Source: a virus. From it: 47,825 bases of DNA. Below the pieces are notes generated by a model. That model was not told the origin of the DNA and searched no databases. It saw only the letters and a program-made list of their open reading frames with translations. The translations under genes were made by a program, and so were the position numbers. This document shows positions 1,428-28,715 of the stretch, in pieces. Within the stretch, counting starts at the first letter, position 1. Each line of letters starts with the position of its first letter. The DNA lies in the IMG/VR virus record IMGVR_UViG_3300030399_000026. The stretch is one strand, 5' to 3'.

Positions 1428-1709
1428 CTATGCTTGGTCGTCCCATAGGTCCTCTTCATCCATCGTTAGTAAATAAGAGTACACCTCATGCGCACCGATA
1501 GCCTTCGCTCTACGAACTGCTTCTTCATGCGGATCATCTAATCCCACGCCACCCCTAAAACGGGCTAGCTCCTCCTCCTCCAACTCCCGGAGGTGCCGCT
1601 CCAGCATCGCCTTGACCGCCTGTTGCACCGGATGCGCCGAGAAGAGCACCCAGTCCTCCTCCTCCACCACTACTGTCCTTGCCACCATCGCTCTCCTTAT
1701 CGTTGCCAC
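1428..1709 (-). CDS. Hypothetical acidic protein (start uncertain; alternative ATG at 1607)
   Basis: The ORF overlaps the Gly-rich 3' end of the portal ORF by 53-155 nt depending on the start used. The C-terminal part (EEAVRRAKAIGAHEVYSYLLTMDEEDLWDDQA) looks like a genuine protein. Confidence 0.4.
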   Translation of the reverse strand: MATIRRAMVARTVVVEEEDWVLFSAHPVQQAVKAMLERHLRELEEEELARFRGGVGLDDPHEEAVRRAKAIGAHEVYSYLLTMDEEDLWDDQA

Positions 1710-3861
1710 CCATCATTGAGTGGAGGATTTTGATTGCCTCCAGCGTTCCCTCTTGCTTGTTCTTCGCGGCTCCGATTTGCGCCTCAATAAGCGCAATCTG
1801 ATGCCCAGTATCCACACCCTTCGCCTCAGCAAGAGTTTGAACAACTTGTGCCTCCAAGAGTTTGATTTGGGCTTGTTGCAACTCAGCCTTGGAGACCAAG
1901 TCGAGGAGCTTGATCTTGAAGTCGAGTTGCTGCTTGGCCTGAGCCGACTGTTGCTTGAGTTGCTCGATCTGAAGCTTCGGGTTCTGCGGAGGCGGAACGG
2001 CGAACGGACCCTTAGGATCAGGTAGGAACTTGTCGATGTCAGGGACCTTCAGGGCTTGAAGGTAGTAACGATGGACTTGATAGATGTCGTAGCCTGGAGC
2101 CGCCATTGCCGCCTGCATCAGCGACGAGGCTTGGTTGTAGCGTTGGGCGTCCGACATGTAGAACGGGTCGGCGCTAGGGCGGATCGTAACCTCGGCATTC
2201 TTGTAGAGGTGCGCTGCTGCCTTAGACTGCGGCGGGGCTGACTGAGCGAAGTACGGCATGCTCTCGTCAAGGAACACGCAGTTCAGGCGGAACAGTTTGC
2301 GCAACTCCTGAGTGAAAGCCCGATGCGTCCGCTTGAAGATGCCGTTGAACACCTTCATGCCCTGCTCTACCATCGCACGGGAAGTCTCAGCCGGAGTATT
2401 CTGACCTGGGTTCTTACCTTGCAGAATGTCAACCGCACCAGCGATCTGCTGTCCATACTCGATGAGGAGGGTGAGCAGTTGGAAGAGCGACTGGTTAGGC
2501 GGTGGAGGGGGCAGAGGAACAACACTCTTCCTGATGTCATCTCCACTTCCATCAACAGTCTTCCACTCGCCGGGGCGGAAACGATACTCGCCCTTCTTAT
2601 TCTTGAACCCGCGCCCAAGGAAGCCCCCTCCAGCATTGGCAAGGGTTCCCGAATCGAGCATCTGGTTGAGCGAGGAATCAATGGCGTGATTGAGCGGCCC
2701 GAGTAGAGCACCGAATCCGAGGTCATAGAAGCCACCATCCGGCGAGGGGATGAAAGGATACTTCGTGAACATCGTCAGAGGGTTGATTCGGATGAGTTTT
2801 CCGGAGGGTAGGAAAGTAACATCCTTGCGAGTGAAACGCGGCACGATTCGCAGCACTTGGGCCGTATCATAGCGAACAGTGACGATGTATGGTTCGGCGT
2901 AGCCGTCGCCGTCCAAATCGAGCGTGCGATGTTGTTCCAGCAACTCGTATGGAGCATCGTGGTCGGCCACGACAGGCCGGATTCCTTGTCGGTCGTCGGT
3001 CTCTTCTTCGAGCATGTAGCGGAGTCGGGGCTCGGCTCGGGGGGAACCTTCTTTGAACTCGGCAAAGATTCCTCGGGCTTGGCGCTCGTAGACGGCGTTA
3101 GGGTCGAGGTAGATGATGTGGGTAAGGCGGGGGGCATGCTCAATGTCCTTGGTGTAGTAGGACACGACGATGTCCTTCGGGGAGATAAACTCCGAAACGT
3201 TGTGGCACAGGATGGGGTCGAAGTAGGACTTCTTGAAGGCGCACCCCATGATGGCTTGGGTCAAGAGCATCTTGTCGTGGTTCTCTTCCCAGGTCTCGTC
3301 CTCTTCGAGGATTTGATAAGACATGTGGTCGGCTATTTCGTTGGCCTGTTGGGTCAGGGCATCGAACTTGGCCTTGAGTTGCTGAGCTTGCTGCTGGGCT
3401 TGCTGCATAGCCTGCTGCGCCTGGGGGTCAGGCGGTTGACCCGGCTGGGCAGGAGGCATCGTAGGCAGCGTCAGCTTAGGCATTTTCTGTAGCGGACGAG
3501 CAGCGACAGGTTGTCCACCGTTGACCAGCGCGGGGTAGGCGCGAGACTGATACTGAAGGGCGGCAATAGTCAAGAGAGGGAACTTGACGTTGGCGGCATC
3601 CGGCCACGGGAAGGTCTTCTTCTCGGTGACTTGAAGGGCTAGGCGCATAGCCAACTGCATCCGCTCTTCCCATTCTTGGCGAGAGACCCGGTCGTTGTCG
3701 AAGTCCTGCTTGACCATCGCACCGAGGGTGTCGAGGTCATGCTCGTCGAAACGGTCGACGAGGTTCGAGGAGCGCATCAACTTCTCGTCGAGCGCGATGA
3801 AGTGTTCAAGGTTCCACGGAGCATTAGCCGGGGCCTGATCTTCGAAGTCAGTAACACTCAT
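1555..3861 (-). CDS. Portal protein (768 aa from ATG 3861; ORF open to 3903)
   Basis: Largest head-module ORF and next coding gene after terL. It has a Q/P-rich insertion (PPAQPGQPPDPQAQQAMQQAQQQAQQ) and a Gly-rich C-terminal tail. The call rests on size and synteny, not on a named motif. Confidence 0.7.
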   Translation of the reverse strand: MSVTDFEDQAPANAPWNLEHFIALDEKLMRSSNLVDRFDEHDLDTLGAMVKQDFDNDRVSRQEWEERMQLAMRLALQVTEKKTFPWPDAANVKFPLLTIAALQYQSRAYPALVNGGQPVAARPLQKMPKLTLPTMPPAQPGQPPDPQAQQAMQQAQQQAQQLKAKFDALTQQANEIADHMSYQILEEDETWEENHDKMLLTQAIMGCAFKKSYFDPILCHNVSEFISPKDIVVSYYTKDIEHAPRLTHIIYLDPNAVYERQARGIFAEFKEGSPRAEPRLRYMLEEETDDRQGIRPVVADHDAPYELLEQHRTLDLDGDGYAEPYIVTVRYDTAQVLRIVPRFTRKDVTFLPSGKLIRINPLTMFTKYPFIPSPDGGFYDLGFGALLGPLNHAIDSSLNQMLDSGTLANAGGGFLGRGFKNKKGEYRFRPGEWKTVDGSGDDIRKSVVPLPPPPPNQSLFQLLTLLIEYGQQIAGAVDILQGKNPGQNTPAETSRAMVEQGMKVFNGIFKRTHRAFTQELRKLFRLNCVFLDESMPYFAQSAPPQSKAAAHLYKNAEVTIRPSADPFYMSDAQRYNQASSLMQAAMAAPGYDIYQVHRYYLQALKVPDIDKFLPDPKGPFAVPPPQNPKLQIEQLKQQSAQAKQQLDFKIKLLDLVSKAELQQAQIKLLEAQVVQTLAEAKGVDTGHQIALIEAQIGAAKNKQEGTLEAIKILHSMMGGNDKESDGGKDSSGGGGGLGALLGASGATGGQGDAGAAPPGVGGGGASPF

Positions 3862-4103
3862 GATTGCAATTCCAAATAGGTAGACCACAAGGGCAGGCGT
3901 CACAATCTTCAGTGGGGTAGGGAGAGTAGGGCTCGCCGTCGCCCTCCCGGCTCACCGCTACGGAGGAGCTTACTTCGGGCGCTCCCAGATGTGCAAGGGT
4001 TCGCTCGCTACGCTCGCCGCCTTCGGCGCCCTTGACATCCGGTTCTGCGCGCCCTCGTGTCGCCCCTCTTCGCGGGTGAACCTCAACGGGCGCGGCATCG
4101 CTG

Positions 4104-5561
4104 CTAGTACCCAGTGATAGGGTTGCGTCCTTCATCTAAGGCTCCAGATTCTTCCATCTCCTCTTCCCACTCCAGTTCGTCAAGCTCGCGGCGGGTGAGA
4201 GAGGGGGAGAGTTTGTTGAGGTAGAGGCCAAGCCACGCCAGGGCGTCAACTCGGTCGTCGTTCTTCCCACGCGGGAAGTTTATCATCTCTTCGTAGAACG
4301 AGAACCACCATTCGGCGTCGCAGTCGAAGTGGACGCCGCCTGCCCGCATCCGGGCTTGGATGGAAGTGGCACGAGCCTGCTTGTCCTTGTGGGGGCGAAT
4401 CCTTTCAATCGATAGATAGCGCCCTCGTTTCCGCATCTCGGCTTCCAAGAACGGCCCGATGGTCTTGGCGATATTCTCGTCCTCGACGACCCAGAAGTCG
4501 ATGTTGTAAAGTTCCTGGAGGCGGAACATCTCTTCTATCGATTCAAGAGGGTCCAGACGCTTGGCAATAACTTCCACAATATGAAGTAGGCCATCAGGGC
4601 TAACTCCACCAACAACAATGGCAGTGGGATCGCCCTTATCGGACTGTCCAATCGAGAAGTCAATCGCCGCGTACATCGTCTTAGGTTCTTCATGATCCGC
4701 CGCCGTCATTGCACGGAAGTCGCTCTTCCGAAAGTAGGCGTCCGCTTCCGCAACAGGGTGAGAGAGATACTCTTGAGAGTAGCCCGAGGGGTTGCCTGCC
4801 GATATGTACCGCTGCCGCTCTCGACGAAGGCGTGCCTCCGTGAATTTCTCGGGCCAGAGAATTTCGCCAAAGTCGTCAAACGATTTATGGGCGCGGAAGC
4901 GACGACCCACCCATCCATTGTCAGGGTCTGTAAGTAGCCGTTCGAGTAGCGAATCCATATGTAGGATTGTCCCAAGGAACCGTACTCGCAGATTATCGGC
5001 CCCACACGGAAGGAGGGCGTTGTTGAACCAGTCTCTGAGTTTTTCACGGCGTTCCTTTGACATGACTGCTTCGTCGTTTTCTAAGTCATCGACGACGATG
5101 AGGGAGGGGCGCTTGTTGTGCCAGAGAAGGCCACGGACGGCTTGTTCAGCGCCCTTACCTACGACGCAGAACTCTCGACCCCCTGCCTCCGCTACCAGTT
5201 GGGTTTCGTTAGCCCGCAAGACCCGTACACCAAATTCGGTTCGTAGGTCATGGTTGTCCGTAAGTATTCTGGTGAGATTTGCAAGATGCCCTGCGGCGAG
5301 CGCTTCGGTCGCGGACACGAGGAGGGCGAAGTCATCAGAACCAAATAGAAGGCTTGCGAGACTGAAGGCGTGAGTTCCCGCAGTGGACTTGGCATGGCCG
5401 CGAGGAGCCGCAACTGCCACGTTCTGTTCGGGCGAACAGAATAGATTCCACAGGTCTCGGTGGAACTGGGGAGTTGGTTTTGGTTGGTCGAGGTCGGCAT
5501 GAAGGAAGGCTTCCATAAAACCCTCAACAAGGTGCGCATCGATGATGATCTTATTGCTCAT
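4104..5561 (-). CDS. terL: Terminase large subunit (485 aa from ATG 5561)
   Basis: Walker A-like VAAPRGHAKST and Walker B LIVVDDLEND are present. The C-terminal RNase-H-like nuclease acidic residues are in AAIDFSIG, WVVEDENI and GKNDDRVDAL. It overlaps the upstream TerS-like gene by 11 nt. Confidence 0.9.
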   Translation of the reverse strand: MSNKIIIDAHLVEGFMEAFLHADLDQPKPTPQFHRDLWNLFCSPEQNVAVAAPRGHAKSTAGTHAFSLASLLFGSDDFALLVSATEALAAGHLANLTRILTDNHDLRTEFGVRVLRANETQLVAEAGGREFCVVGKGAEQAVRGLLWHNKRPSLIVVDDLENDEAVMSKERREKLRDWFNNALLPCGADNLRVRFLGTILHMDSLLERLLTDPDNGWVGRRFRAHKSFDDFGEILWPEKFTEARLRRERQRYISAGNPSGYSQEYLSHPVAEADAYFRKSDFRAMTAADHEEPKTMYAAIDFSIGQSDKGDPTAIVVGGVSPDGLLHIVEVIAKRLDPLESIEEMFRLQELYNIDFWVVEDENIAKTIGPFLEAEMRKRGRYLSIERIRPHKDKQARATSIQARMRAGGVHFDCDAEWWFSFYEEMINFPRGKNDDRVDALAWLGLYLNKLSPSLTRRELDELEWEEEMEESGALDEGRNPITGY

Positions 5562-6177
5562 CGCGGGGGACCTCGGTGACGGCACCGTCGATGATGGACG
5601 GGTCTTTGGCGCCAAGGGCGCGGAGTTTGTTGGCGAGCAGGTTCATGCGGTCTGTGTCGCCGGGAATGGAGGTTGGTTCGTTGCGCAGCAATTGGCGCTT
5701 GATGAAGACGGAGTCGGCCACCCTCGTCAGGACGGAGGCCGTGATGGGCATGCGCCGTTTCGTGCCGTCCTTGTTGACGCCCGTCACCTCGCCCTTGATG
5801 ATGCGGTCCTCTAGCTCGATGAGGGACCGGTCAAGGATGCGGGTGTAGGTGGAGTCGAGAATGGTGTTGGAGTCCCTCTTGAACCGGGTCTCCTCTTCTT
5901 GCCACCAGAGTTGGCGCGCCATCTTGTTGATTTCGTAGACGGTCTTGCCGAACTCACGGGCGCAGAGGGCCATGTTGCCGGTCTCGCAGTACCGGCGGCA
6001 GATCGCAATGTCAAGGGTGACTAGCTCTTCGCCGGGAACCGTGCCCGCCGAGGCGCCGAAGGCGCCATCGGAAACGCGCTCGTCGGCTATGGCTTGAACA
6101 GCCGTATGGAATTGGTCTGCGGGCGGCTGAGGAGGAGACTCCTGTAGCACCGCCCCCTTCTTGTCCGTTACCTTCAT
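5551..6177 (-). CDS. Terminase small subunit-like DNA-binding protein (208 aa)
   Basis: Sits immediately upstream of and overlapping terL. It contains an HTH-like segment, ICRRYCETGNMALCAREFGKTVYEINKMAR. Confidence 0.6.
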   Translation of the reverse strand: MKVTDKKGAVLQESPPQPPADQFHTAVQAIADERVSDGAFGASAGTVPGEELVTLDIAICRRYCETGNMALCAREFGKTVYEINKMARQLWWQEEETRFKRDSNTILDSTYTRILDRSLIELEDRIIKGEVTGVNKDGTKRRMPITASVLTRVADSVFIKRQLLRNEPTSIPGDTDRMNLLANKLRALGAKDPSIIDGAVTEVPRDEQ

Positions 6178-6541: not shown

Positions 6542-6619
6542 TGGTCTGGGCGGCAGGATTCGAACCTGCGACCTCCTGCTTCCAGGGCAGGTGACTTGAC
6601 CGGACTAGCCTACACCCAG
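6542..6619 (-). tRNA. tRNA, anticodon UGG (Pro) if the 7-nt loop CCUGGAA is read canonically
   Basis: The reverse complement folds as a cloverleaf. Acceptor stem is CTGGGTG/CGCCCAG with an encoded A73-CCA. The D arm is GGCT/AGTC with GG in its loop. The anticodon stem is CCTGC/GCAGG, the variable loop is AGGTC, and the T arm is GCAGG-TTCGAAT-CCTGC. C1-G72 with A73 fits bacterial tRNA-Pro identity. Positions 33 (C) and 37 (A) are atypical. Confidence 0.8.
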
Positions 6620-7416
6620 ATCGATGACGCAGATCATATCACAGTCCATTCAAGATCGGGATTGACTGCACCCTGTTGCTACATCGAATGCGGTTAAAGC
6701 CTTTCGCGCGAGCGTTGCGATTGCCCCCCTCCGGCCCCTAGGACGGGATTATGGGACTGCTTACATACCTCCGGATGTAGTAGGCGCTTACAACATCTGC
6801 GCTGGCGCATGAAGCATGTGCTTACATCACTCGTTGTGTAGTGAGTGCTTACACCATGCTGATGCATGGGGCATCACGAGGCGTATGTAGTAGGTACATG
6901 GTAAGTGTAACAGTCGTCTAACCTAGGGTTTGTACTAATAACACTGCGCACTCTGCGCACCTAAGATTGAGTCAAGCCAAGCAACACGGCGAAAGTAGCA
7001 AAGCGGAGTGGCCAGCACGGCGCGAAGTACCGCCAGAGAAGCCGAACCTCTGTGATTAACGGCGCGCAGTAGCAGCACCCGACTAGCATGACAAGCTAGC
7101 CAAGCAAGACGGCCCTAGTGCAGAGCGCTGGTCAAGCATCCGCCTTCTAGATGCCCGGTCGTGACAGGTGTTCTTTAACAATTCGTACCCCATGCCTCAG
7201 GCGTTGCACCCTAGGTGGAGTGAGCGAGTAGCTAGCCGTGACAGGACTAGTCGAAAGCGCACAGAGCAAGACCGGACGAGTGCAGGCAAGACCGCAGGTG
7301 ATGGGGAGTTCAGTAGCGCACCCTAATGTTGGGTGCCAGACTAGTAGTTGAGTCTGGACCGGCGCCTTCGGCGAAAGCCAAGGGCACGGTCCTTTGTCAA
7401 CTACAGGAGCAGGATC
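6620..7416. promoter_or_regulatory. 797-bp ORF-free divergent control region (hairpin array plus short direct repeats)
   Basis: No credible ORF on either strand. GCTTACA occurs at 6759, 6786, 6820 and 6847. Hairpins include TACAT/ATGTA (6762-6779), TCACT/AGTGA (6829-6846), CCATGC/GCATGG (6853-6868) and CCAGACT/AGTCTGG (7335-7357). Direct repeats are agccaagcaaSacggc (6975, 7098), cgtgacagg (7160, 7237) and gcaagaccg (7266, 7286). Confidence 0.5.
6633..6641 (-). promoter_or_regulatory. Candidate extended -10 promoter (TGaTATGAT) for the tRNA and late operon
   Basis: The minus strand reads tgTGaTATGATctgcgtcatcgat immediately before tRNA position 1. There is no convincing -35 element. This is pattern recognition only. 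Confidence 0.3.
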
Positions 7417-7963: not shown

Positions 7964-8026
7964 TACCAAAGAGCTTCGGGCGCTAGATACGCTTCAAGTT
8001 CTTTTCTACTTTAGAGGGGTGGCAAG

Positions 8027-8218
8027 ATGGATAGGTGGTGCGTCAAGACGAGTGAGATTTGCGATGGGGACGATGCTTTCGAGTCCGTCGATCAGGTAGA
8101 GGACAAGGACTTCCCGGAGCAACATTCGGAGGCAATCGTGTATGCGAGGTTTCAGGCCGAACGGGGATTGAAGGCAGTAGTGTTCCACAACGGGCAGTGG
8201 TATCAAACCTACGAATAG
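8027..8218 (+). CDS. Hypothetical acidic protein (63 aa)
   Basis: RBS gagggg plus 7 nt; clean ORF. Confidence 0.5.
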   Translation: MDRWCVKTSEICDGDDAFESVDQVEDKDFPEQHSEAIVYARFQAERGLKAVVFHNGQWYQTYE

Positions 8219-8227
8219 GGGGTTGTG

Positions 8228-8332
8228 ATGGAATCGTTGATTGCAGTGTATGCGGCATGGGAAGCGGCGGTGGTGCTGGGCGGGCTGGTAACGCTGATGG
8301 TGTTGGTGAATTTCTTAGGGGAAGGGGACTGA
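8228..8332 (+). CDS. Tiny hydrophobic peptide (34 aa)
   Basis: Hand translation gives MESLIAVYAAWEAAVVLGGLVTLMVLVNFLGEGD. The stop codon lies 4 nt before hammerhead 1, the same spacing seen at the other two ribozymes. Confidence 0.35.
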   Translation: MESLIAVYAAWEAAVVLGGLVTLMVLVNFLGEGD

Positions 8333-8336
8333 ATCA

Positions 8337-8391
8337 GGTCGAAACCCCGGCATGTTCGGGGTAAGCACGTAATGCGTGCTCTGATGAGACC
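8337..8391 (+). ncRNA. Type II hammerhead ribozyme 1 (predicted cleavage after A8363)
   Basis: Layout is ggtc-GAAA-[ccccg/gcatgtt/cgggg, closed by A8344-T8362]-gTA-[agcacg/taatg/cgtgct]-CTGATGA-gacc. All invariant core nucleotides are present. The flanking ggtc/gacc form the open stem II. Confidence 0.85.
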
Positions 8392-8405
8392 AATTGGGAG
8401 GATGT

Positions 8406-8744
8406 ATGAAAGCGATGGTTAATGTAGGGCTGCTCCGTGCGGGTGGCGGGTATGTGAGCGTGCAGGATATTCTCGCAACGTTCAAGGCGAACCGGATTGA
8501 AGTAGAGCGGTATGAGGTGAGGCTTATCCAGCCTTCACTGGAAGGAGAGGATACGTTTGTAGCAGAGGTGAACTTTCCGCTTGCCAACAATTACCGCGCA
8601 GTCTACGCGGCAAGCGTGGCATTGGGACAGGACTGTATCGCCGTGTTGTGGCCGTTCGGCGGGGAATTGATCGGCCCCAAAGCTGCCGAATGGGGCGACT
8701 TCCGGGAAGAATACTTTCACCGTCTGGAGGTGGAACATGTTTGA
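8406..8744 (+). CDS. Hypothetical protein (112 aa)
   Basis: RBS gggagg plus 4 nt precedes ATG 8406, 15 nt after hammerhead 1. Confidence 0.6.
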   Translation: MKAMVNVGLLRAGGGYVSVQDILATFKANRIEVERYEVRLIQPSLEGEDTFVAEVNFPLANNYRAVYAASVALGQDCIAVLWPFGGELIGPKAAEWGDFREEYFHRLEVEHV

Positions 8745-8829
8745 GATTGCCCTGTCTACGCTGATCGTGTTCGGCGCCATCCCCCTCTCTATGTGGAGTC
8801 TGAACCACCCAACCAAGGTGTCGAAGTAA
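8737..8829 (+). CDS. Tiny hydrophobic peptide (30 aa)
   Basis: Hand translation gives MFEIALSTLIVFGAIPLSMWSLNHPTKVSK. RBS is ggaggtgg. It overlaps the upstream stop, and its own stop lies 4 nt before hammerhead 2. Confidence 0.35.
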   Translation: MFEIALSTLIVFGAIPLSMWSLNHPTKVSK

Positions 8830-8833
8830 ACAA

Positions 8834-8898
8834 GGTCGAAACGCCGTGTCAGGTGCACGCCTGCGGCGTATTAGGGTATCGCCCTAACTGATGAGACC
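8834..8898 (+). ncRNA. Type II hammerhead ribozyme 2 (predicted cleavage after A8870)
   Basis: Layout is ggtc-GAAA-[cgccg...cggcg extended arm, closed by A8841-T8869]-gTA-[ttaggg/tatcg/ccctaa]-CTGATGA-gacc. Stem II may extend through aaacaa (about 8827-8832) pairing with ttgttt (8902-8907). Confidence 0.85.
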
Positions 8899-8917
8899 AG
8901 ATTGTTTCACGTGGAAC

Positions 8918-9112
8918 ATGGAGGCTGTGATGAAACAGTGGGGTGTTAAATTGAAGAACGAGCAGGGCGTGGAGTTTGCCTACTACTGCGACGCCGATAC
9001 GGAGTCGGGCGCGGTAGCGCAAGCGCTGGCAGAGTATGCAAACTGTGAGGTCGTCCTCACGCGCGACCTCGGCATGCTGGAATCGGGCAGCTACTACCAC
9101 AGGTTCATCTGA
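8918..9112 (+). CDS. Hypothetical protein (64 aa; alternative start 8930)
   Basis: In-frame ATGs at 8918 and 8930 (ggaggctgtgATG). Product includes MKQWGVKLKNEQGVEFAYYCDADTESGAV. Confidence 0.55.
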   Translation: MEAVMKQWGVKLKNEQGVEFAYYCDADTESGAVAQALAEYANCEVVLTRDLGMLESGSYYHRFI

Positions 9113-9282
9113 TGCGCGCCCTCACGATCAAGCCGCTACTGGTCTTTATCGCGGCGGTAGTGTCCTTGCACTTTGCGTGGGATATCTACCAAGACCTACC
9201 AAGTGTGACCGGATTTGTCGATCACACGTTTTCGTGTCATACGGGCGCGGTGCATGGCACCGTCCGTAATCCATTCGTTTGA
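9112..9282 (+). CDS. Small membrane or secreted protein (56 aa)
   Basis: TGATG overlap with the upstream gene. Hand translation gives MRALTIKPLLVFIAAVVSLHFAWDIYQDL... with a hydrophobic N-terminus. Confidence 0.4.
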   Translation: MRALTIKPLLVFIAAVVSLHFAWDIYQDLPSVTGFVDHTFSCHTGAVHGTVRNPFV

Positions 9283-9290
9283 GGTGAGAG

Positions 9291-9581
9291 ATGAGACAGA
9301 TAGGTAGAGACGTTGTGCAGGCGTTGAAAGAGCGCCGGTCGTTTCGCAAGGGTAATACGGAGGTCGCACGTGCCGACATATATACGGACGTGTACCTATT
9401 CGGCAATCGCATTGCCCGATACTTCGACACGGGGGATTTTGAGATTAATCTCCAGACGTTGCGGGAGTGGCCTACGCCGACTACCGCGTCACGGTTGAAT
9501 GACATTCTTCGCGGGCTCCAGCGCAACGATTACGTGTCTGTGCGTCGTGGCGGACCCTTCATTAACAACATTCGGATTTAA
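9291..9581 (+). CDS. Hypothetical protein (96 aa)
   Basis: RBS gaggtgagag precedes the ATG; clean ORF. Confidence 0.6.
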   Translation: MRQIGRDVVQALKERRSFRKGNTEVARADIYTDVYLFGNRIARYFDTGDFEINLQTLREWPTPTTASRLNDILRGLQRNDYVSVRRGGPFINNIRI

Positions 9582-9592
9582 GGAGGTTTCAC

Positions 9593-9763
9593 GTGGAACA
9601 TTTTCTCGCCTTTCTAGGCGCCTTAGCTGGTGTCTATCTCCTCTACCGTGCAGTCGAATCGCTTCTGGCCTTGCGCCGCCTAGGGCGATATTACTTCTGG
9701 GACGCCATCCGCTTGTGGGGGATTGTCGCCGTCATTGCACTCGCATTCGTGCACAACGCTTGA
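9593..9763 (+). CDS. Small two-TM membrane protein (56 aa, GTG start)
   Basis: RBS aaggagg plus 5 nt precedes GTG 9593. Product is EHFLAFLGALAGVYLLYRAVESLLALRRLGRYYFWDAIRLWGIVAVIALAFVHNA. The stop lies 3 nt before hammerhead 3. Confidence 0.4.
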   Translation: MEHFLAFLGALAGVYLLYRAVESLLALRRLGRYYFWDAIRLWGIVAVIALAFVHNA

Positions 9764-9766
9764 CCT

Positions 9767-9823
9767 GTCGAAACCCGGCGCCTAGCAAGCCGGGTAGTGG
9801 CGAGATACGCCACCTGATGAGAC
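9767..9823 (+). ncRNA. Type II hammerhead ribozyme 3 (predicted cleavage after A9796)
   Basis: Layout is gtc-GAAA-[cccggc/gcctagcaa/gccggg, closed by A9773-T9795]-gTA-[gtggcg/agata/cgccac]-CTGATGA-gac. The core is intact, but only 3 contiguous stem II pairs are visible. Confidence 0.75.
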
Positions 9824-9843
9824 TCACTTGCAAGGAGGTCGCA

Positions 9844-10020
9844 ATGGGAGTCCGTAAACCCGTTCGCACGCGTCGCAGTGTCCCATTGCGCCCGTCGAAT
9901 CGCAGCTATACCACGGTGCAGAGTAAGCCCGTGTTGGTAATCCCCCGGAGGTACTTTGGCACGGTGTCGGAGTATGTTGCGGAATTCGAAGATACTAACC
10001 ATCTTAAGAGGACTGTATGA
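9844..10020 (+). CDS. Small basic protein (58 aa)
   Basis: RBS aaggagg plus 5 nt precedes ATG 9844, 21 nt after hammerhead 3. Confidence 0.5.
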   Translation: MGVRKPVRTRRSVPLRPSNRSYTTVQSKPVLVIPRRYFGTVSEYVAEFEDTNHLKRTV

Positions 10021-10157
10021 CAACAGCACAACTGGAACGGATTGTTTTCACCTCGTCGACGGACTTCGCATGTCGGGATGAGGGGGGGTATGACTTGGAT
10101 ATTGACGGGCTCGATTGGGACCGCGTCAATGAACTGAGTTTCGAAGGGGAGGAATGA
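10017..10157 (+). CDS. Acidic 46-aa protein
   Basis: ATGA overlap with the upstream gene. Hand translation gives MTTAQLERIVFTSSTDFACRDEGGYDLDIDGLDWDRVNELSFEGEE. Confidence 0.4.
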   Translation: MTTAQLERIVFTSSTDFACRDEGGYDLDIDGLDWDRVNELSFEGEE

Positions 10158-10159
10158 AC

Positions 10160-10375
10160 ATGGCCCATGCAGGTAACGGCGGCATCCAACGCCACTCCCT
10201 AGGCGACGACTACCCATTCACGGTAGTGGGAACCATCCGCGACGGGGAGACGCGGTATTACGTGCAGAACCTCATCACGGGGGACTTGTATCACAAGGTC
10301 AATCCGTTTCTCACTAGCGAAACCGCGCACGAAGAGTGCCGATTCATCAAGGAGTTTTACGACCATGAGCAATAA
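10160..10375 (+). CDS. Hypothetical protein (71 aa)
   Basis: RBS gaaggggagg plus 7 nt precedes ATG 10160. Confidence 0.55.
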   Translation: MAHAGNGGIQRHSLGDDYPFTVVGTIRDGETRYYVQNLITGDLYHKVNPFLTSETAHEECRFIKEFYDHEQ

Positions 10376-10544
10376 CATCAAAGTCAACTTGGCCTTCACC
10401 CTCGACGAAGCGCGGGAGCTTCACCAACTCCTGCACGATATCGTCACCGACAACAAGCAGGCTCTGCCCATCGACCGCCACCTGCATGAGGCCATTGCAG
10501 CGCAACTCGCTGACGCAGGCATTGTTCCACGTGAAACATCGTAG
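10365..10544 (+). CDS. Hypothetical protein (59 aa)
   Basis: RBS aaggag lies upstream. Hand translation gives MSNNIKVNLAFTLDEARELHQLLHDIV.... The 3' end carries one copy of the GTTCCACGTGAAAC motif. Confidence 0.45.
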   Translation: MSNNIKVNLAFTLDEARELHQLLHDIVTDNKQALPIDRHLHEAIAAQLADAGIVPRETS

Positions 10545-10645
10545 GCTTCAAATGGATAACCCCTGCATCAAGACTGGCGTCGCACTAACTCCTCTTCAGT
10601 ACCAATGTCGTGGACTACGCCTCACGGCGAACTAAAGGAGCAACA

Positions 10646-11320
10646 ATGGACCAACTAATCACCTCATCGACAGTGTGGCGTGCTGTCGATCAAATCGCCG
10701 CAGAGGCCCGTGCACGGACTTTGTCGGACGACCCTTCCAACTACCTCAACCGGCGAGAGTATGGCTTCGTCCTCGACTCCAAGAGCGGCGCCATCCTGTC
10801 CCGCGTACAGGGCGACACGAAGACGGTTAATTTCGAATGCGCTGCTCACCTCATCCCCGGCAACGTAGTCGTCCACTCGCACCCGAACGCCACCCCCCTG
10901 TCGCCGGAAGACATCACCATCGCCACAGGCAACGGCGACAACATTGGCGAATCCATCGTCTTCGCTGTCTCCATCGACGGTTCCCTCTTCTGGTCCGGTG
11001 GATGGAACAAGAAAAAGCTGCGTGGCCCCAGCGATGTCGCTTCCCTCTGGGAGAACATAGTCGCAAAGTGGGGCAAAGCCCTCGCCGATAGGCTGTATTC
11101 CCCCTCCGACATCCGCATGGCGCGGATTGATCCCTCCTTCCAACCCCTCTCCCCAGAAGGCATCACCCTGGACGACATCCTTGCCTTCTCCCTTCACCAC
11201 TTCTGGAAAGACTTCGCCAAGCGCGACCTCCTGACCTACGGCTACCGCCTGACACCAGAGTTCGAGGAGAGGTATGAACTCGTCCGCAATGCCGCCTTTC
11301 GAGTAGGAGCACCTTTATGA
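10646..11320 (+). CDS. JAB/MPN (JAMM) domain protein, RadC-like metalloprotease fold (224 aa)
   Basis: RBS aaaggag precedes the ATG. The motif VVHSHPNATPLSPEDI is an H-x-H-P...S-x-x-D arrangement, one residue shorter than the classic spacing. An upstream Glu lies in REYGFVLD, which fits the E...HxH...S..D JAMM signature. Confidence 0.65.
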   Translation: MDQLITSSTVWRAVDQIAAEARARTLSDDPSNYLNRREYGFVLDSKSGAILSRVQGDTKTVNFECAAHLIPGNVVVHSHPNATPLSPEDITIATGNGDNIGESIVFAVSIDGSLFWSGGWNKKKLRGPSDVASLWENIVAKWGKALADRLYSPSDIRMARIDPSFQPLSPEGITLDDILAFSLHHFWKDFAKRDLLTYGYRLTPEFEERYELVRNAAFRVGAPL

Positions 11321-11490
11321 AAGCCGGAAAAGCACACAATGCCGCCGCCTATCTCCTCGCCCATGGGAGTCCCTTCGAGCGCCATCTAGCAGAAGCGTGG
11401 TATGCGGGCGGGGAAGTTAATCGTCGAAGACTAGTGAATGCCTTCCCCGACCTTTTCCTGAGGGCACTTCCTTTGATAGGAGATATCTAA
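11317..11490 (+). CDS. Hypothetical protein (57 aa)
   Basis: ATGA overlap with the JAB gene; found by hand translation. Confidence 0.45.
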   Translation: MKAGKAHNAAAYLLAHGSPFERHLAEAWYAGGEVNRRRLVNAFPDLFLRALPLIGDI

Positions 11491-11663
11491 TGGGCTGGCT
11501 GATTGGATTGTTTGCGTCTATCGGGTTCCTGTCGAGCCTGTATGTGATCGACCGGAATACCGACCCGCTACCGGCCTGGGCCGTGCTCCTGACTGTCTCG
11601 GTACTGGGGCTGGCTTGGATAGGCGTGGCAGGGCTGGCAATGGCCGCGCTGGAGGTGTTGTGA
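11490..11663 (+). CDS. Small two-TM membrane protein (57 aa)
   Basis: TAATG overlap with the upstream gene. Product is MGWLIGLFASIGFLSSLYVIDRNTDPLPAWAVLLTVSVLGLAWIGVAGLAMAALEVL. Confidence 0.45.
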   Translation: MGWLIGLFASIGFLSSLYVIDRNTDPLPAWAVLLTVSVLGLAWIGVAGLAMAALEVL

Positions 11664-11670
11664 GGGAAGA

Positions 11671-11693
11671 AGGGGGTGATCCCCCCTCTTTTC
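11671..11693 (+). terminator. Intrinsic terminator ending the early gene block
   Basis: A GGGGG-tgat-CCCCC hairpin is followed by tcttttc, directly after the last early ORF. Confidence 0.55.
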
Positions 11694-11737
11694 GAGGTGA
11701 AAAATGAAATTTCTAAAATGCACCTTGCGCACAGTCA

Positions 11738-11914
11738 GTACAAGAGTACAAGAATACAAGTTTGGAGAAAAAGGCAGAAATCGCGAAAAAGAAAAAAGTA
11801 AGTAAGGGGGGATATTAAAAAAAAAAAAATAAATAACCTACCTTCTACACTTTTTTTTCCTTTCCAAAATCTGTCGCAATTTGCTCAAACTTGTATTCTT
11901 GTATCCTCGTATCC
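11738..11914. repeat. Inverted iteron arms flanking an AT-rich spacer (candidate origin or operator)
   Basis: The left arm is gtacaaga-gtacaaga-atacaag-tttg (11738-11764). The right arm, caaacttgtattcttgta... (11886-11903), is an 18-bp perfect inverted copy of 11747-11764. The 121-bp spacer contains A13 (11817-11829) and T8 (11851-11858). Confidence 0.6.
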
Positions 11915-12009
11915 AGCGTTGAACGCGTGCGCATGTTCGACAGCTAAAATCAATTACCAAAGTGCCTGAAGTACGTGCATAATACGAGTTCGCACCACGG
12001 AGACCCAAA

Positions 12010-12453
12010 TTGACATCCCGAACCCCTCAACCACTGAACCGTTTCCCTGCCATCGACTTCGAAGTCCTGAACCGCGTGGCCGAAACCGGGCGCCTGGACA
12101 TCACATTCCAGACCCCCAATATGGCAATGAACACGAAGTTCCGGCTCCTGCGTCTCATCAAGTCGCTCGAATTCTACAAACCCGCCGACCCCCTGACGCA
12201 AGTTGCCGTTCTCTTCACCATCAAAATCGATGCCAAGCGCGGCGCCATGACAATCCTACGCAAGGACCAATCGCCCGAACGTAATGCCATGCGCGCGGCC
12301 CTCGATGCTGCCCCCGGTGCTATCGCCTCCTCCGACATCAACGAAGCTGAAGACGCTGGCATGGACCTCGCTATCGAGCAGATGAAGCAGAACGGACAAC
12401 TCATCCTCGTCAACGGCGAGTGGTGCCACAACCCGGACTGGGTGGCAGAATGA
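12010..12453 (+). CDS. Hypothetical protein (147 aa, TTG start; alternative ATG at 12121)
   Basis: The frame is protein-like from the TTG start (IDFEVLNRVAETGRLDITF). RBS is ggag plus 8 nt. Confidence 0.5.
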   Translation: MTSRTPQPLNRFPAIDFEVLNRVAETGRLDITFQTPNMAMNTKFRLLRLIKSLEFYKPADPLTQVAVLFTIKIDAKRGAMTILRKDQSPERNAMRAALDAAPGAIASSDINEAEDAGMDLAIEQMKQNGQLILVNGEWCHNPDWVAE

Positions 12454-24010: not shown

Positions 24011-24357
24011 CTCAATGGGCAACGAATCCCTATACCCCCTACGGGGCGCAGATGGCTTCCCCCCACAACATCCAAGTGGGGGATCGCTTCCATTACGACG
24101 ACACCTCCATCAATCCCAACACCGCCGACATCTTCGAGGGGGAGGTGATATCGGTGATGAGTGCGGATGTCTTCCGTGCCAAGATCACTTCGCGGCAGGC
24201 GCAGAGTTTCTATGGAGGAACCGAGGTCTCACTGTCCTCGGCCAGCCGCTACATCACGTGGTACGCCAGTCTACTGGCGCCGCCTCTGCAAACGTCTCGG
24301 GAACTGCCCAACGGCTTCGACTACGACGCCCACAAAGACTTTATGAGGAACCTCTGA
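24007..24357 (+). CDS. Hypothetical protein (116 aa) ending ...DYDAHKDFMRNL
   Basis: ATGA overlap with the upstream gene. Confidence 0.55.
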   Translation: MTQWATNPYTPYGAQMASPHNIQVGDRFHYDDTSINPNTADIFEGEVISVMSADVFRAKITSRQAQSFYGGTEVSLSSASRYITWYASLLAPPLQTSRELPNGFDYDAHKDFMRNL

Positions 24358-26018
24358 TGTCGTTTCGCCCTGAAGGTCCACTTGATGCCCGGATCATGGT
24401 CATCTCGGATGCCCCAGATTTCGACAGGAAGGGGGTGCCACGCCCTTTTGGGCAGAACCCTGGGGAGTTGCTAGGGCGCATGCTTGCGGAGGCCGGGATA
24501 GCCGTTTCCTCGTGCTTCGTGACGAGCGCCGTGCGTGAACGTCCGCCGGGGAATAAGATCGAGTTGTGGGCGCCCCCCACAAAAAAGGGGCAGACCGAGT
24601 TGGCTGGCTCCGAAAACGGCGTCGAGTGCCAAGGCCGCATCGTTCACCGCTACATCAAGGAAGGCTATGAAAAGCTCCAAGAGGAAATCGCCCTCGTTCA
24701 ACCCCGGCTCATTATTGCGCTGGGTAATACTGCTCTTTGGGCTCTTACTGGCCTCGTTTCTGTTTCTAAGTGGCGTGGAAGCACTCTTACTGTGCCTTCC
24801 CTTCCAGGGGTAACAATTGTTCCTACTCTGCACCCTGCCTCTGTCCTACGCCAGTGGTCTACACGCCCCATCGTCGTGCAAGACTTGCGGAGGGCCGCAC
24901 AAGCCGCAACTATCCCTCCTGTTAAGCCCGCATGGAGGTTTGCTATACGACCTTCATTGCAGCAGGTGCGAGAAACGATGGCGAATCTGGAAGCCACGCT
25001 TGATGCAGCTACCGCCCCCCTCGTCCTCTCGACCGACATAGAAACTCGCGCCCAGCACATCACTTGCTTGGGCATTGCCTGGAGCAAGCTCGATGCCATT
25101 TGCATCCCATTCCTCTCTGTCGACCGTCCAGACGGCTATTGGTCACAGGACGATGAGGCTGAGATTGTCTACCTTCTCTATCGGGTTCTCACGCACCGTA
25201 ACGCATTGGTCATCGGACAAAACTTCATCTACGACACTCAGTATATTCTGCGGCATTGGGGATTCGTACCACGCTTTGGGCGTGACACTATGGTCGCCTT
25301 CCACGTTTGCTTTCCGGGAATGCCGAAGTCCCTCGACCATATCGCGTCGATGACTAACGAGTGGTACGTGTATTGGAAGGATGATGGCAAGGAATGGGAC
25401 AAAGGAGCAGACCAAGATGAAGATCGTTATTGGACGTACAACTGTGAGGACTGCGTTCGGACTTATGAGGCCGATGAAGTTCTTCAGACCGTTGTGGATA
25501 AGATGGGACTGCGTGGACCACACGACTTTCAGCAGAAGCTATTCTATCCAGTGCTGCGTACTATGGTTCGGGGTGTACGCATCGATAAGGCACGACAGAC
25601 TGCAATGCGAGCGAGGCTGAACCACCATGCGAAGGAATGTATCCAGGCTATCGAGCAGATGGTGGGGTGGCCGCTCAACCCTAAGTCGCCCAAGCAAATG
25701 CAGAAGTTCTTCTACGAAGAGCTTGGCTTACCGGTCCAGAAGAAACGCGGTTCTATCGGTCCATCGTGTGACGACGCAGCGCTTGATACGTTCCGCGCAA
25801 AAGTTCCATACCTCCGACCGCTGGTTGATGCTATCAAAGAGTTTCGCTCTTGTGAAACCGTCGCAGCGAACGCGTTGAAGGCAGGAGCAATAGGCCATGA
25901 TGGAAGAGTCCACTGCTCCTACAACATAACTGGAACAACTACGTTCCGTTTCTCGTCCTCTACGGACGCCTTTGGTAGCGGGTATAACCTGCAAAACATT
26001 ACTGCTGGAGATGAATGA
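24357..26018 (+). CDS. Family-A DNA polymerase, part I: UDG-like N-domain, 3'-5' exonuclease and N-terminal half of the polymerase domain (553 aa)
   Basis: The UDG family-4-like motifs are IMVISDAPDFDRKGVPRPF and TLHPAS. The exonuclease motifs are STDIET, GQNFIYDTQY and YNCEDC. The polymerase thumb region is PKSPKQMQKFFYEELGLP. The ORF ends ...GSGYNLQNI-TAGDE-stop, exactly at the conserved PolA NLQNIP element. Confidence 0.85.
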   Translation: MSFRPEGPLDARIMVISDAPDFDRKGVPRPFGQNPGELLGRMLAEAGIAVSSCFVTSAVRERPPGNKIELWAPPTKKGQTELAGSENGVECQGRIVHRYIKEGYEKLQEEIALVQPRLIIALGNTALWALTGLVSVSKWRGSTLTVPSLPGVTIVPTLHPASVLRQWSTRPIVVQDLRRAAQAATIPPVKPAWRFAIRPSLQQVRETMANLEATLDAATAPLVLSTDIETRAQHITCLGIAWSKLDAICIPFLSVDRPDGYWSQDDEAEIVYLLYRVLTHRNALVIGQNFIYDTQYILRHWGFVPRFGRDTMVAFHVCFPGMPKSLDHIASMTNEWYVYWKDDGKEWDKGADQDEDRYWTYNCEDCVRTYEADEVLQTVVDKMGLRGPHDFQQKLFYPVLRTMVRGVRIDKARQTAMRARLNHHAKECIQAIEQMVGWPLNPKSPKQMQKFFYEELGLPVQKKRGSIGPSCDDAALDTFRAKVPYLRPLVDAIKEFRSCETVAANALKAGAIGHDGRVHCSYNITGTTTFRFSSSTDAFGSGYNLQNITAGDE

Positions 26019-27161: not shown

Positions 27162-27531
27162 GCAGTGGCAAGAGCGCCTCACTAAGAAAGCGGAGCGCAC
27201 TGCCACGATGGAGAATGCTTTCGGCTATCGGCGCAGGTGGTTCGACCGGGTCGAGGGCAACATCATCAACGAAATGGTGGCATGGATTCCCCAATCCACC
27301 GTAGCCATCATCATCAACCACGCCTACACAAACATCGATGCGAACCTACCTGATGTGGATATATTGCTTCAAGTACACGACTCTCTTACTGGGCAGTTTC
27401 CGCTGGAAGATCGTGAGAAGCATATCGCGGATATCACCCGCGAAAGTACCATTGTCGTTCCTTACCCTGATCCTCTTATCGTCCCTGTTGGCCTGAAGCT
27501 ATCGACGGATAGTTGGGGGCGTTGCAAATGA
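26815..27531 (+). CDS. Family-A DNA polymerase, part II: palm and fingers motifs A, B and C (238 aa, GTG start)
   Basis: RBS ggag plus 8 nt precedes GTG 26815. AIPNCREMF continues the NLQNIP...R..F element. Motif A is LDLDSADLRIV, motif B is FKKLCHGTNYMG and motif C is LLQVHDS. Confidence 0.8.
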   Translation: MAIPNCREMFIPDNGREMFDLDLDSADLRIVTWESNCRGMKDLFAAGVKPYVAVAQEYYHDPSITKSHPAYQVFKKLCHGTNYMGKPPTIAGQCGLLVNDVTRIQKWYFEKFPEIKQWQERLTKKAERTATMENAFGYRRRWFDRVEGNIINEMVAWIPQSTVAIIINHAYTNIDANLPDVDILLQVHDSLTGQFPLEDREKHIADITRESTIVVPYPDPLIVPVGLKLSTDSWGRCK

Positions 27532-28715
27532 GAAAGCTAGATAACTGGCTCGACGAGTTCGTGCGCTACGGACAGGTCGGGGAAGCACCGGATCACCTCC
27601 TCTTCTGGACGGGGGTGTCTACTATTGCAGGCGCATTGGGGAGGAAGGTATGGCTAGAGCAGGGATTGTTTCGTTGGTACGCAAACTTCTACGTGGTCCT
27701 CGTTGCTCCCCCTGGGATCATCTCGAAGACAACGTGTGCTGGTATCGGTGTGAAGTTGCTGCGCCAAGTGGACGAGGTGTTCTTCGGGCCGAATGTCGTT
27801 ACGTGGCAAGCATTGGTTTCGTCCTTCAAGAAAGCGAACTCAGTTACCGAGGAGGGTCATGGCGAGTCTATTGAGACCCATTCACTCAACATTTTTTCTG
27901 GGGAGTTTGGAAACCTGCTGACCCCGAACGACCGGGAGATGATGGACATGCTGGTGTCCCTATGGGACTGCGCATCGATCTACAAGGAGACGAAGAAGGA
28001 TGGCGCTGAGTCGATTGAGAACACCTTTCTCAACCTGATTGCATGCACTACGCCCGGGTGGATTAGCGGCAACATCCCCCCGTACATGATCGAGGGCGGG
28101 TTGGTGAGCCGTATCATCTGGGTCTATGGGGAAGAGAAGCGGAAGCTGGTTGCCTACCCCGGCTTAGCCTTCAACACGGCGGCAAGTGAGATGCGCAGGC
28201 AGGAGATTCGCCTCGTCGAGGACCTCCGTGCTATCTCCAAACTGAAGGGCGAGTTCGGCATGACGGAGGAGGCTATCGCTTGGGGCGAGGAGTGGTATCA
28301 GGCCCACTACTTCCTCCACAAGAAGGGCGCCGATGACGCACGCTTCGGGGGCTACCTCGCCCGGAAGCAAACCCATATCCACAAGCTGGCGATGATCCTA
28401 TCCGCCGCCCGTGGCGATTCCATGCTCATCACCGTCGAGGACCTACAAAATGCTGAGACCCATATCACCGCGCTGGAAGCCAGCCTGCCGCAAATCTTCG
28501 ACCGCATTGGGAAATCTGAGACATCATCGCAGACTGATCGACTACTCTCATTTATCGGGCAACATGCGCAAGGAGTGCCGATGGCTACGGCTTATCAGCA
28601 TGTACACAACTACTTCCCCAAGCTTGATGATTTCCAAGCGGTGGTCAAAGGGCTTAAAGCTGCGGGTATGGTGAAGCAGAGGGTTGAAGGAGGAACAATC
28701 CTCCTCCACCTTTAG
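27528..28715 (+). CDS. P-loop replication protein, helicase-like (DUF3987/primase-helicase-type resemblance, 395 aa)
   Basis: ATGA overlap with polymerase part II. It has a deviant Walker A, VLVAPPGIISKTT, preceded by FWTGVSTIAGALGRKVW. Position and size fit a replicative helicase, but the family call is weak. Confidence 0.5.
   Translation: MRKLDNWLDEFVRYGQVGEAPDHLLFWTGVSTIAGALGRKVWLEQGLFRWYANFYVVLVAPPGIISKTTCAGIGVKLLRQVDEVFFGPNVVTWQALVSSFKKANSVTEEGHGESIETHSLNIFSGEFGNLLTPNDREMMDMLVSLWDCASIYKETKKDGAESIENTFLNLIACTTPGWISGNIPPYMIEGGLVSRIIWVYGEEKRKLVAYPGLAFNTAASEMRRQEIRLVEDLRAISKLKGEFGMTEEAIAWGEEWYQAHYFLHKKGADDARFGGYLARKQTHIHKLAMILSAARGDSMLITVEDLQNAETHITALEASLPQIFDRIGKSETSSQTDRLLSFIGQHAQGVPMATAYQHVHNYFPKLDDFQAVVKGLKAAGMVKQRVEGGTILLHL

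Follow-up and report, generated by a model that had tools for sequence, protein, structure and literature searches.

The viral record IMGVR_UViG_3300030399_000026 was analysed over its whole length of 47,825 nucleotides (nt; hereafter the window), and we describe here three hammerhead ribozymes that lie between small genes within positions 8027–9843. The window encodes a tailed-phage gene set that includes a portal protein (1555–3903, −), a large terminase (4104–5615, −), a DNA polymerase (24015–26018, +), a primase (27513–28715, +) and an internal virion transglycosylase; a nucleotide-level search of deposited phages with the window gave no match. The hammerheads are situated in a rightward block of small, tightly packed early genes that begins beside the divergent structural module, and no promoter-like or strong terminator-like sites were found within 8000–11670.

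Three type II hammerheads and their neighbouring genes

The descriptor used comprised a stem II strand, GAAA, a stem III hairpin, a cleavage nucleotide H (not G), a stem I hairpin, CUGANGA and the second stem II strand. Over both strands of the whole window it matched exactly three sites; all on the plus strand, all intergenic and all within 1.5 kb. Hammerhead 1 (HH1; type II, 8337–8391, +) has a GGUC/GACC stem II, GAAA at 8341 and CUGAUGA at 8381, with a predicted cut at 8363/8364, after A8363. Hammerhead 2 (HH2; type II, 8834–8898, +) has an extended stem III and a predicted cut at 8870/8871, after A8870; and hammerhead 3 (HH3; type II, 9767–9823, +) has a stem II of three base pairs (bp; GUC/GAC) and a predicted cut at 9796/9797, after A9796. 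Each copy carries CUGAUGA, GAAA, the A-U pair closing stem III (A15.1-U16.1) and UA at the cleavage site, with all 11 core nucleotides and all three helices intact. Stem II is open and measures 4, 4 and 3 bp in HH1, HH2 and HH3 respectively, while stem III (7–8 bp) and stem I (6–7 bp) are both loop-closed. The minimum-free-energy fold of each site is the expected three-way junction (−24 to −27 kcal/mol, z ~ −3).

A covariance model derived from nine unrelated viral type II hammerheads (A2, R1) scored HH1 at 53.4 bits (E 3e-12), HH2 at 44.1 bits and HH3 at 35.6 bits (E 3.5e-7). The next-best match in the window scored 11.8 bits, other matches in the window or its relatives did not exceed 12 bits, and 425 kb of unrelated phage-like DNA gave zero matches. 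In an alignment of 93 model matches (86 distinct sequences, those of the window included), which was itself fitted to the covariance model, 97.9% of cells were paired and 345 double-sided changes were counted. These changes fell at 12 of the 15 pairs, and the covariation score was 0.70 by comparison with 0.13 for shuffled and 0.03–0.08 for slid partners. The hammerheads claimed in an earlier, sequence-only reading of this DNA are thus real, with exactly three descriptor sites, the expected folds and model scores of 35.6–53.4 bits; by sequence and predicted fold, HH1–HH3 are type II (open stem II) hammerhead ribozymes.

A pseudoknot of at least 4 bp between loop I and the 3' tail is found in the majority of type II members, although not in all, and its importance for rapid cleavage was shown on a model type II ribozyme (PMC3088659). 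Candidate pairings of this kind amount to 4 bp in HH1 (UAAU/AUUG) and 3 bp in HH2, with nothing above chance in HH3; 57% of the viral ribozymes surveyed below, among the matches listed, have a loop I–tail pseudoknot of at least 4 bp. HH3 may be the least active of the three.

Each ribozyme is preceded by a very small hydrophobic open reading frame (ORF), referred to here as a mini-ORF. Hydrophobicity is given as the Kyte-Doolittle maximum over 19 residues (KD19), and the coding score comes from a codon-usage model trained on the long genes of the window. Mini-ORF 1 (8228..8332, +) encodes 34 amino acids (aa) with one predicted transmembrane (TM) segment, and has a GGGG Shine-Dalgarno (SD) site, a KD19 maximum of 2.26, a coding score of 6.0 and a TGA stop at 8330–8332. 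It is followed, 14 nt after HH1, by a gene for a 112-aa protein of the phrog_11722 family (8406..8744, +; PHROG match 3.7e-16). Mini-ORF 2 (8737..8829, +; 30 aa, hydrophobic) has a start that overlaps the stop of this gene, a GGAGG SD, a KD19 maximum of 1.85, a coding score of 9.5 and a TAA stop at 8827–8829; the gene after HH2 (8918..9112, +) encodes 64 aa from the ATG at 8918, or 60 aa from an SD-led ATG at 8930. Mini-ORF 3 (9593..9763, +; 56 aa) has two hydrophobic segments, an AGGAGG SD, a KD19 maximum of 1.91, a coding score of 14.6 and a TGA stop at 9761–9763, and the gene beyond HH3 (9844..10020, +), which starts 20 nt after the ribozyme with an AAGGAGG SD, encodes a basic protein of 58 aa.

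The distance from the stop codon to the first paired base is 4, 4 and 3 nt for HH1, HH2 and HH3 respectively. Between the last paired base and the next start there are 14, 19 (31 if 8930 is the start) and 20 bases; expressed as start minus ribozyme end, the values are 15, 20 and 21. The coordinates, sizes and hydrophobicity of the mini-ORFs and the stop gap of 3–4 nt are as given in the sequence-only reading, and its distances of 15–21 nt to the starts at 8406, 8918 and 9844 also stand. Its description of these starts as led by a ribosome binding site (RBS) fails for 8918, which is without a good SD; GGAGG sits 5 nt before the ATG at 8930. The N-termini of homologues (MTTVRKW) resemble MEAVMKQW and therefore favour 8918 over 8930, although the start is still ambiguous.

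A length-greedy gene caller took wrong frames in this GC-rich DNA and was replaced by a per-locus codon-usage caller, which agreed with by-eye reading and with the JGI calls. The JGI gene calls on a 100% identical contig, L177, contain all three mini-ORFs. For mini-ORF 3 the sole database cluster, on 34 contigs, is an exact match, reported at 98% only because the GTG start is read as V. Relatives of the mini-ORFs at intermediate distance, as needed for dN/dS, were sought and none was found, the only cluster of the 56-aa ORF being identical to the window; mini-ORF 1 has no detectable homologue in relatives, and tblastn of the three mini-ORFs against relatives of the same lineage gave no homologues. 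We considered whether the mini-ORFs could be chance open frames on a G+T-rich strand, and judged this unlikely given their SD sites, positive coding scores and independent gene calls. The same possibility is countered by the syntenic mini-ORFs in relatives and by the rule that type II hammerheads abut real stops, both described below. The constant spacing had been used to argue that the mini-ORFs are real; as an argument for their translation it is fair, given that elsewhere ~70–100% of ribozymes directly adjoin the stop of a real gene. On these features the hydrophobic mini-ORFs most probably represent genuine genes for small membrane proteins, which abound in the early region of this lineage.

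Hammerhead junctions and mini-ORFs in other phages

Survey 1 was made of viral contigs containing GTCGAAAC...CTGATGAGAC and yielded at least 119 loci; all further counts from it, here and below, are among the matches listed. It gave 117 descriptor-positive ribozymes, compared with one in reversed-sequence controls. With the codon-usage caller, the stop of the upstream gene was located at −2 to +4 nt in 61 of 90 ribozymes and the next start was mostly 11–34 nt downstream of the ribozyme. Independently of any caller, a frame of 40 codons or more had its stop 2–8 nt before GAAA in 69/98 cases, by comparison with 4/98 at an anchor placed 300 nt upstream. The stop-to-GAAA distances were spread over 2–8 nt, with a sharp cut-off beyond 8 nt. 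About 20% of the surveyed ribozymes were without a nearby upstream stop, yet kept 16–40 nt to the next start.

A second, protein-selected set consisted of 48 loci with a homologue of the 112-aa phrog_11722-like gene of the window, found by an alignment-based search; a single-protein search of viral contigs with this gene had found nothing. It contained 29 covariance-model matches, or 27 once two loci duplicating contigs L123 and L127 were dropped, and nearly all of these 27 ribozymes directly flank the 112-aa homologue. In ~10 loci the ribozyme ends 14–17 nt before the ATG of the homologue, and in eight it is placed 2–4 nt after its stop. Of 26 scored junctions, all 26 have 2–4 nt from stop to ribozyme and 14–19 nt from ribozyme to start, with conserved flanks (stop, CA-GGUC ... 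GACC-AAC, GGAG, ATG). A strong SD precedes 26/26 of the genes that follow a ribozyme, compared with 53% at ordinary junctions; ordinary junctions in the ribozyme-bearing genomes have a median gap of 1 nt, with 49% overlapping.

Tight spacing, with 0–4 nt between stop and ribozyme and then 14–20 nt, SD included, up to the start, is the norm for type II hammerheads in compact phage genomes, and the proposal that the ribozymes of the window are positioned relative to translation signals is borne out in both surveys, the stop and start gaps being regular in each (stop at −2 to +4 nt in 61/90, and at 2–4 nt in 26/26). Given the layout of the protein-selected loci, the unit formed by HH1, the 112-aa gene and HH2 exemplifies a cassette that is widespread and has ribozymes at its flanks. 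The layout, in which the ribozyme abuts a stop and an RBS is supplied, is a regularity of general occurrence and possibly undescribed; the term 'stop codon' is absent from PMC3088659 and PMC6765202.

The phrog_11722-like family itself (motif ALDQDCIA...G.L.GP.A..WG.F; contigs L143–L176) has hammerheads on one or both sides in ~20 of the 48 protein-selected loci, for example at 5747–6204 in L157, 5762–6192 in L156 and 5505–5929 in L176. No ribozyme was found in the phrog_11722-like contigs L178 and L179, and an 88% homologue of the 112-aa protein exists without a contig on record. A PDB profile search with the phrog_11722-like protein gave only weak matches (E~0.1), to the N-terminal region of uL18.

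The hydrophobic mini-ORFs do not belong to this general pattern. In survey 1 the ORF upstream of the ribozyme was hydrophobic in 4/65 cases, compared with 8% of controls, and its median length was 87 aa (90 aa in controls); these are ordinary soluble proteins. Inspection of 20 surveyed ribozymes without a called gene nearby revealed no hidden tiny hydrophobic ORFs. In the protein-selected set hydrophobic upstream ORFs numbered 0/27, the ribozyme following the 112-aa homologue directly or after another soluble gene; mini-ORF 2 is absent at the equivalent junction of other phages, where the ribozyme comes directly after the 112-aa homologue. The sequence-only reading had proposed a tiny hydrophobic ORF as part of a repeating cassette grammar, and had named relatives carrying ribozymes without adjacent hydrophobic ORFs as evidence to the contrary. 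Phages of that kind predominate beyond the lineage of the window, and the association holds only within it.

This lineage was defined by a terminase identity of 69–73% and comprises contigs L120, L121, L123, L125 and L127; a terminase scan of bacterial genomes gave relatives of no more than 41% identity, with no ribozymes. L123 and L127 each have an 18-aa hydrophobic ORF whose stop is 2 nt before their single ribozyme. In L120 a 19-aa hydrophobic ORF lies 8 nt before the ribozyme, and the genes downstream of this ribozyme are hydrophobic mini-ORFs too. L125 has, at the syntenic position, a 20-aa TM mini-ORF followed by a decayed hammerhead (7159–7269, −). This relic retains two hairpins in the form seen in L120, that of the stem III loop (CCCGATAGACACGGG) and that of stem I (CATGCCCAAGGGCATG), but no longer has GAAA or CUGAUGA (CGCATGG), and the covariance model scores nothing there. 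In L121 a 21-aa TM ORF overlaps the gene that follows, and a ribozyme is absent. HH1 and the L123 ribozyme have a nearly identical stem I, which suggests that the two ribozymes are orthologous. As judged from these comparisons, mini-ORFs are a conserved feature of the early region of the lineage, with or without a ribozyme, and the ribozyme site beside them is both ancestral and dispensable. Since mini-ORFs occur without a ribozyme in L121 and next to a relic in L125, they are not a required part of a ribozyme module.

All three ribozymes of the window follow hydrophobic ORFs, for which p is ~0.01–0.03 against the genome's own share of such genes (5–6 of ~19 small genes). Across the lineage, hydrophobic genes make up ~25–40% of small early genes, and p is ~0.003–0.06 for 3–5 independent sites all lying after hydrophobic ORFs. 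The link between mini-ORF and ribozyme is confined to the lineage of the window and statistically weak; it is suggestive and no more. This pairing with membrane mini-peptides is nevertheless the one part of the locus that could yield something new, weak as the evidence is.

Probable intercistronic processing and alternative explanations

The explanation that we favour, with some reserve, is that the three hammerheads are self-cleaving sites for intercistronic processing and insulation in an early operon, and that the mini-ORFs are not part of the module. From the sequence and structure of the ribozymes, their spacing and the comparative statistics, all of which are observed, we infer cleavage in vivo, protection of the ends and an effect on expression. 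Each ribozyme fills an entire intercistronic spacer of the rightward early operon, and the polycistronic early RNA is predicted to be cut, once transcribed, at 8363/8364, 8870/8871 and 9796/9797. Of the two products, the upstream one would terminate in the GC-rich hairpin of stem III and carry a 2',3'-cyclic phosphate, and the downstream one would have a 5'-OH and the stem I hairpin at its start, with a strong SD site of its own to follow. Because stem II is the open helix, the cut would fall between two hairpins, and from this topology both new ends should be hairpin-capped; with capped ends and an SD of its own, each junction would therefore form a self-contained processing and insulator site. 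The cut would break translational and decay coupling between neighbouring cistrons and give the pieces defined ends. As ordinary junctions are overlapping or coupled and ribozyme junctions have a strong SD, it is at the latter that coupling would be broken and an independent RBS supplied. It would be incidental that a mini-ORF is the cistron immediately preceding each ribozyme.

The locus offers a clean natural test case: a single early operon holds three ribozymes whose cut sites are predicted and whose neighbours are defined. The layout also provides an annotation rule (a stop that abuts the ribozyme, with a strong RBS and a start 14–19 nt beyond) that fits natural intercistronic insulators and that helps to validate very small ORFs of the kind often missed by gene callers.

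Phage T7 has RNase III processing sites between its early genes, and the likeness to the window, which is functional only, is that the early polycistronic transcript of a podovirus-like phage would be cut between cistrons with hairpins at the new ends. The difference is that a host protein enzyme acts on a double-stranded hairpin in T7, whereas the RNA of the window would cut itself and leave a 5'-OH and a cyclic phosphate. Synthetic insulators of the RiboJ type place a hammerhead, a hairpin and an RBS between a promoter or upstream cistron and a gene. They resemble the natural junctions in that upstream context is removed and the downstream gene is expressed independently (compare the strong SD after the ribozyme at 26/26 natural junctions), but were engineered from a satellite RNA hammerhead of another permutation; the natural elements would also leave a hairpin on the upstream product.

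Clustered type II hammerheads that flank individual genes or small groups of them have been described in phage and prophage genomes, and triple arrangements of them cleave in vitro and in E. coli; it was proposed that they process long phage transcripts to mRNAs of gene length (Perreault et al., 2011, PLoS Comput Biol; PMC3088659). The window shares with these clusters the ribozyme class, the permutation and the presence of multiple copies in transcription orientation between phage genes. It differs in that its copies and phage lineage are new and were missed by Rfam, and in that each ribozyme follows a hydrophobic mini-ORF. The window hammerheads are a known ribozyme class in a known kind of arrangement, and the statement in the sequence-only reading that no such arrangement was described as a system was too strong, hammerhead clusters flanking phage genes and transcript processing having been published in 2011. 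The role of bacterial and phage hammerheads was still listed as unresolved in a 2019 review (PMC6765202). Arrays denser than the triple arrangements of PMC3088659 were also seen, with up to eight hammerheads in ~3 kb of L046 (8402–11317), 7–8 in L047 (2150–4800) and three in L044 (6831–7458).

Four observations weigh against the processing and insulation reading. The first is that Rfam 15 scans of the whole window and of the region alone, at the gathering threshold and at E<=10, reported no hammerhead, with RF02276 (Hammerhead_II) silent. This family has a stem II consensus of 2 bp and gives well-formed phage siblings (L153 6141–6195; several L047 sites) 25–36 bits against a gathering score of 37 bits; HH1–HH3 are probably missed because its seed is narrow, clear siblings also scoring under the gathering value, and the phage subgroup of type II hammerheads is probably under-annotated in routine Rfam scans. 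The second is that HH3 combines a 3-bp stem II with no pseudoknot and that HH2 has only a 3-bp pseudoknot. Thirdly, the stop still hugs the ribozyme in 11/14 surveyed cases with over 60 nt to the next gene, which simple compaction does not explain in full. Finally, every ribozyme site of the lineage follows a hydrophobic mini-ORF, which would be a coincidence with p~0.003–0.06 if the mini-ORFs were purely a by-product.

The last two observations are those from which an alternative involving the ribosome draws, according to which the stop is placed at the 5' edge of the ribozyme so that the terminating ribosome acts on it, with the mini-ORFs as dedicated 'trailer' cistrons that set how frequently this occurs. 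The ribosome could keep the ribozyme from folding, remove competing structure upstream or pull the products away from each other. A terminating ribosome has a footprint of ~9–10 nt past the stop, which here covers the stem II strand and GAAA; the stop located 2–8 nt from GAAA in 69/98 surveyed ribozymes is within this reach, the stop stays anchored with a distant downstream gene too (11/14), and flanking sequence is predicted to out-compete an open stem II of 3–4 bp with ease. Nevertheless, the stop distance is spread over 2–8 nt rather than fixed, and the ~20% of surveyed ribozymes that have no nearby upstream stop but retain 16–40 nt to the next start mean that ribosome termination is no general requirement. 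L121 has mini-ORFs without a ribozyme, and in other phages the ribozymes come after ordinary genes. In a folding test stem II was out-competed in its context, but no differently by native upstream flanks than by shuffled ones (p=0.33), and the test is therefore uninformative. We regard ribosome coupling as unlikely, albeit the best of the alternatives, and the terminating-ribosome idea of the sequence-only reading may hold, though not as a general requirement. An equally doubtful and more specific version is that, within the lineage, the mini-ORF cistron and the hammerhead are a functional pair in which ribosome termination, or membrane tethering during insertion of the peptide, would control folding and cutting, and that stop abutment has been selected in phages. 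Were this true, translation of the upstream peptide would time the release and expression of downstream early genes, and stop abutment at phage type II hammerheads would reflect selected interplay of ribosome and ribozyme, not only genome compaction.

Slightly less probable again is that the ribozyme, alone or with the downstream RBS, serves as a portable junction for the exchange of early genes, its conserved ends (CA-GGUCGAAAC ... CUGAUGAGACC-AAC) providing short homology and cleavage being possibly secondary. When a ribozyme follows a given gene in only one of two genomes, the downstream gene is the same in 1/180 pairs, compared with 18/43 when both genomes have a ribozyme and 271/867 when neither has. 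Identical 52-nt ribozymes lie between unrelated gene pairs in L145 (5914–5965) and L156 (6141–6192), and the same ribozyme and downstream gene have different upstream genes in L160 (5838–5889) and L144 (5925–5976), a pattern suggestive of movement or conversion of ribozyme copies between junctions; the window and its relatives also differ in the order of the genes around the ribozymes. Against exchange, ribozyme junctions are no less conserved than ribozyme-free ones (42% versus 31%), the shared blocks are only 9–11 nt and the strong covariation shows that the RNA fold as such is under selection. Because the family as a whole conserves the top of stem I (CGU.A.GCG), a shared hairpin says little about recombination. 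Recombination within the ribozyme would lead one to expect stem III to go with the upstream gene and stem I with the downstream gene; a test of this, confounded by the family-wide conservation of stem I, gave a mixed result. The earlier suggestion of cassette borders gains partial support from the finding that only 1/180 mixed pairs keep their neighbour and from the identical ribozymes between unrelated genes, and is countered by ribozyme junctions not being less conserved.

It is improbable that HH1–HH3 are decaying relics without present function: the decayed copy in L125 and the empty site in L121 do indicate that the ribozymes are dispensable in the lineage, and HH3 is weak, but all 11 core nucleotides and the three helices are intact in each copy, unlike in the L125 relic. 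Least probable of all is a circular or spliced RNA in which a segment such as 8364–8870 would form a chimeric hammerhead from its ends and be ligated by the ribozyme or by an RtcB-type ligase, a possibility raised in PMC3088659 and allowed by the stem II strands (GGUC/GACC in both HH1 and HH2, GUC/GAC in HH3), but one for which no sequence feature specifically requires circularisation and for which spliced or circular products of clustered bacterial hammerheads were sought and none detected (PMC3088659).

Other features of the early region

The gene preceding mini-ORF 1 (8027..8218, +) encodes a soluble early protein of 63 aa; it is SD-led, has a codon-usage score of 14.7 and homologues in L125 and L123, and is among the JGI calls on the identical contig L177. 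Upstream of it, a terminator-like hairpin (7968–8004) with a 7-nt loop, CUAGAUA, and an adjoining U-rich run is located 3' of a conserved gene for a 66-aa membrane protein. A hairpin after the 66-aa gene in L122 (~125–160, −) has the same CUAGAUA loop on different stems, and loop I of HH3 (AGAUA) may be compared with it.

The first block of small genes is closed by an AT-rich non-coding gap (11664–12010) with a terminator-like hairpin at 11672–11685. This gap contains a 59-nt imperfect inverted repeat (11739–11797 / 11853–11911) of TACAAG units around long A and T runs, which might serve as operator, promoter region or origin. A tRNA-Pro gene (anticodon UGG; 6542–6619, −) is flanked by the structural module and the early region, and is encoded on the same strand as the structural genes. 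A 96-aa early protein (9291–9581) matches Pfam Kyano_Gp96 (PF23790, 3e-11) and phrog_554; in L178 and L179, both small contigs, members of this family likewise adjoin phrog_11722-like genes.

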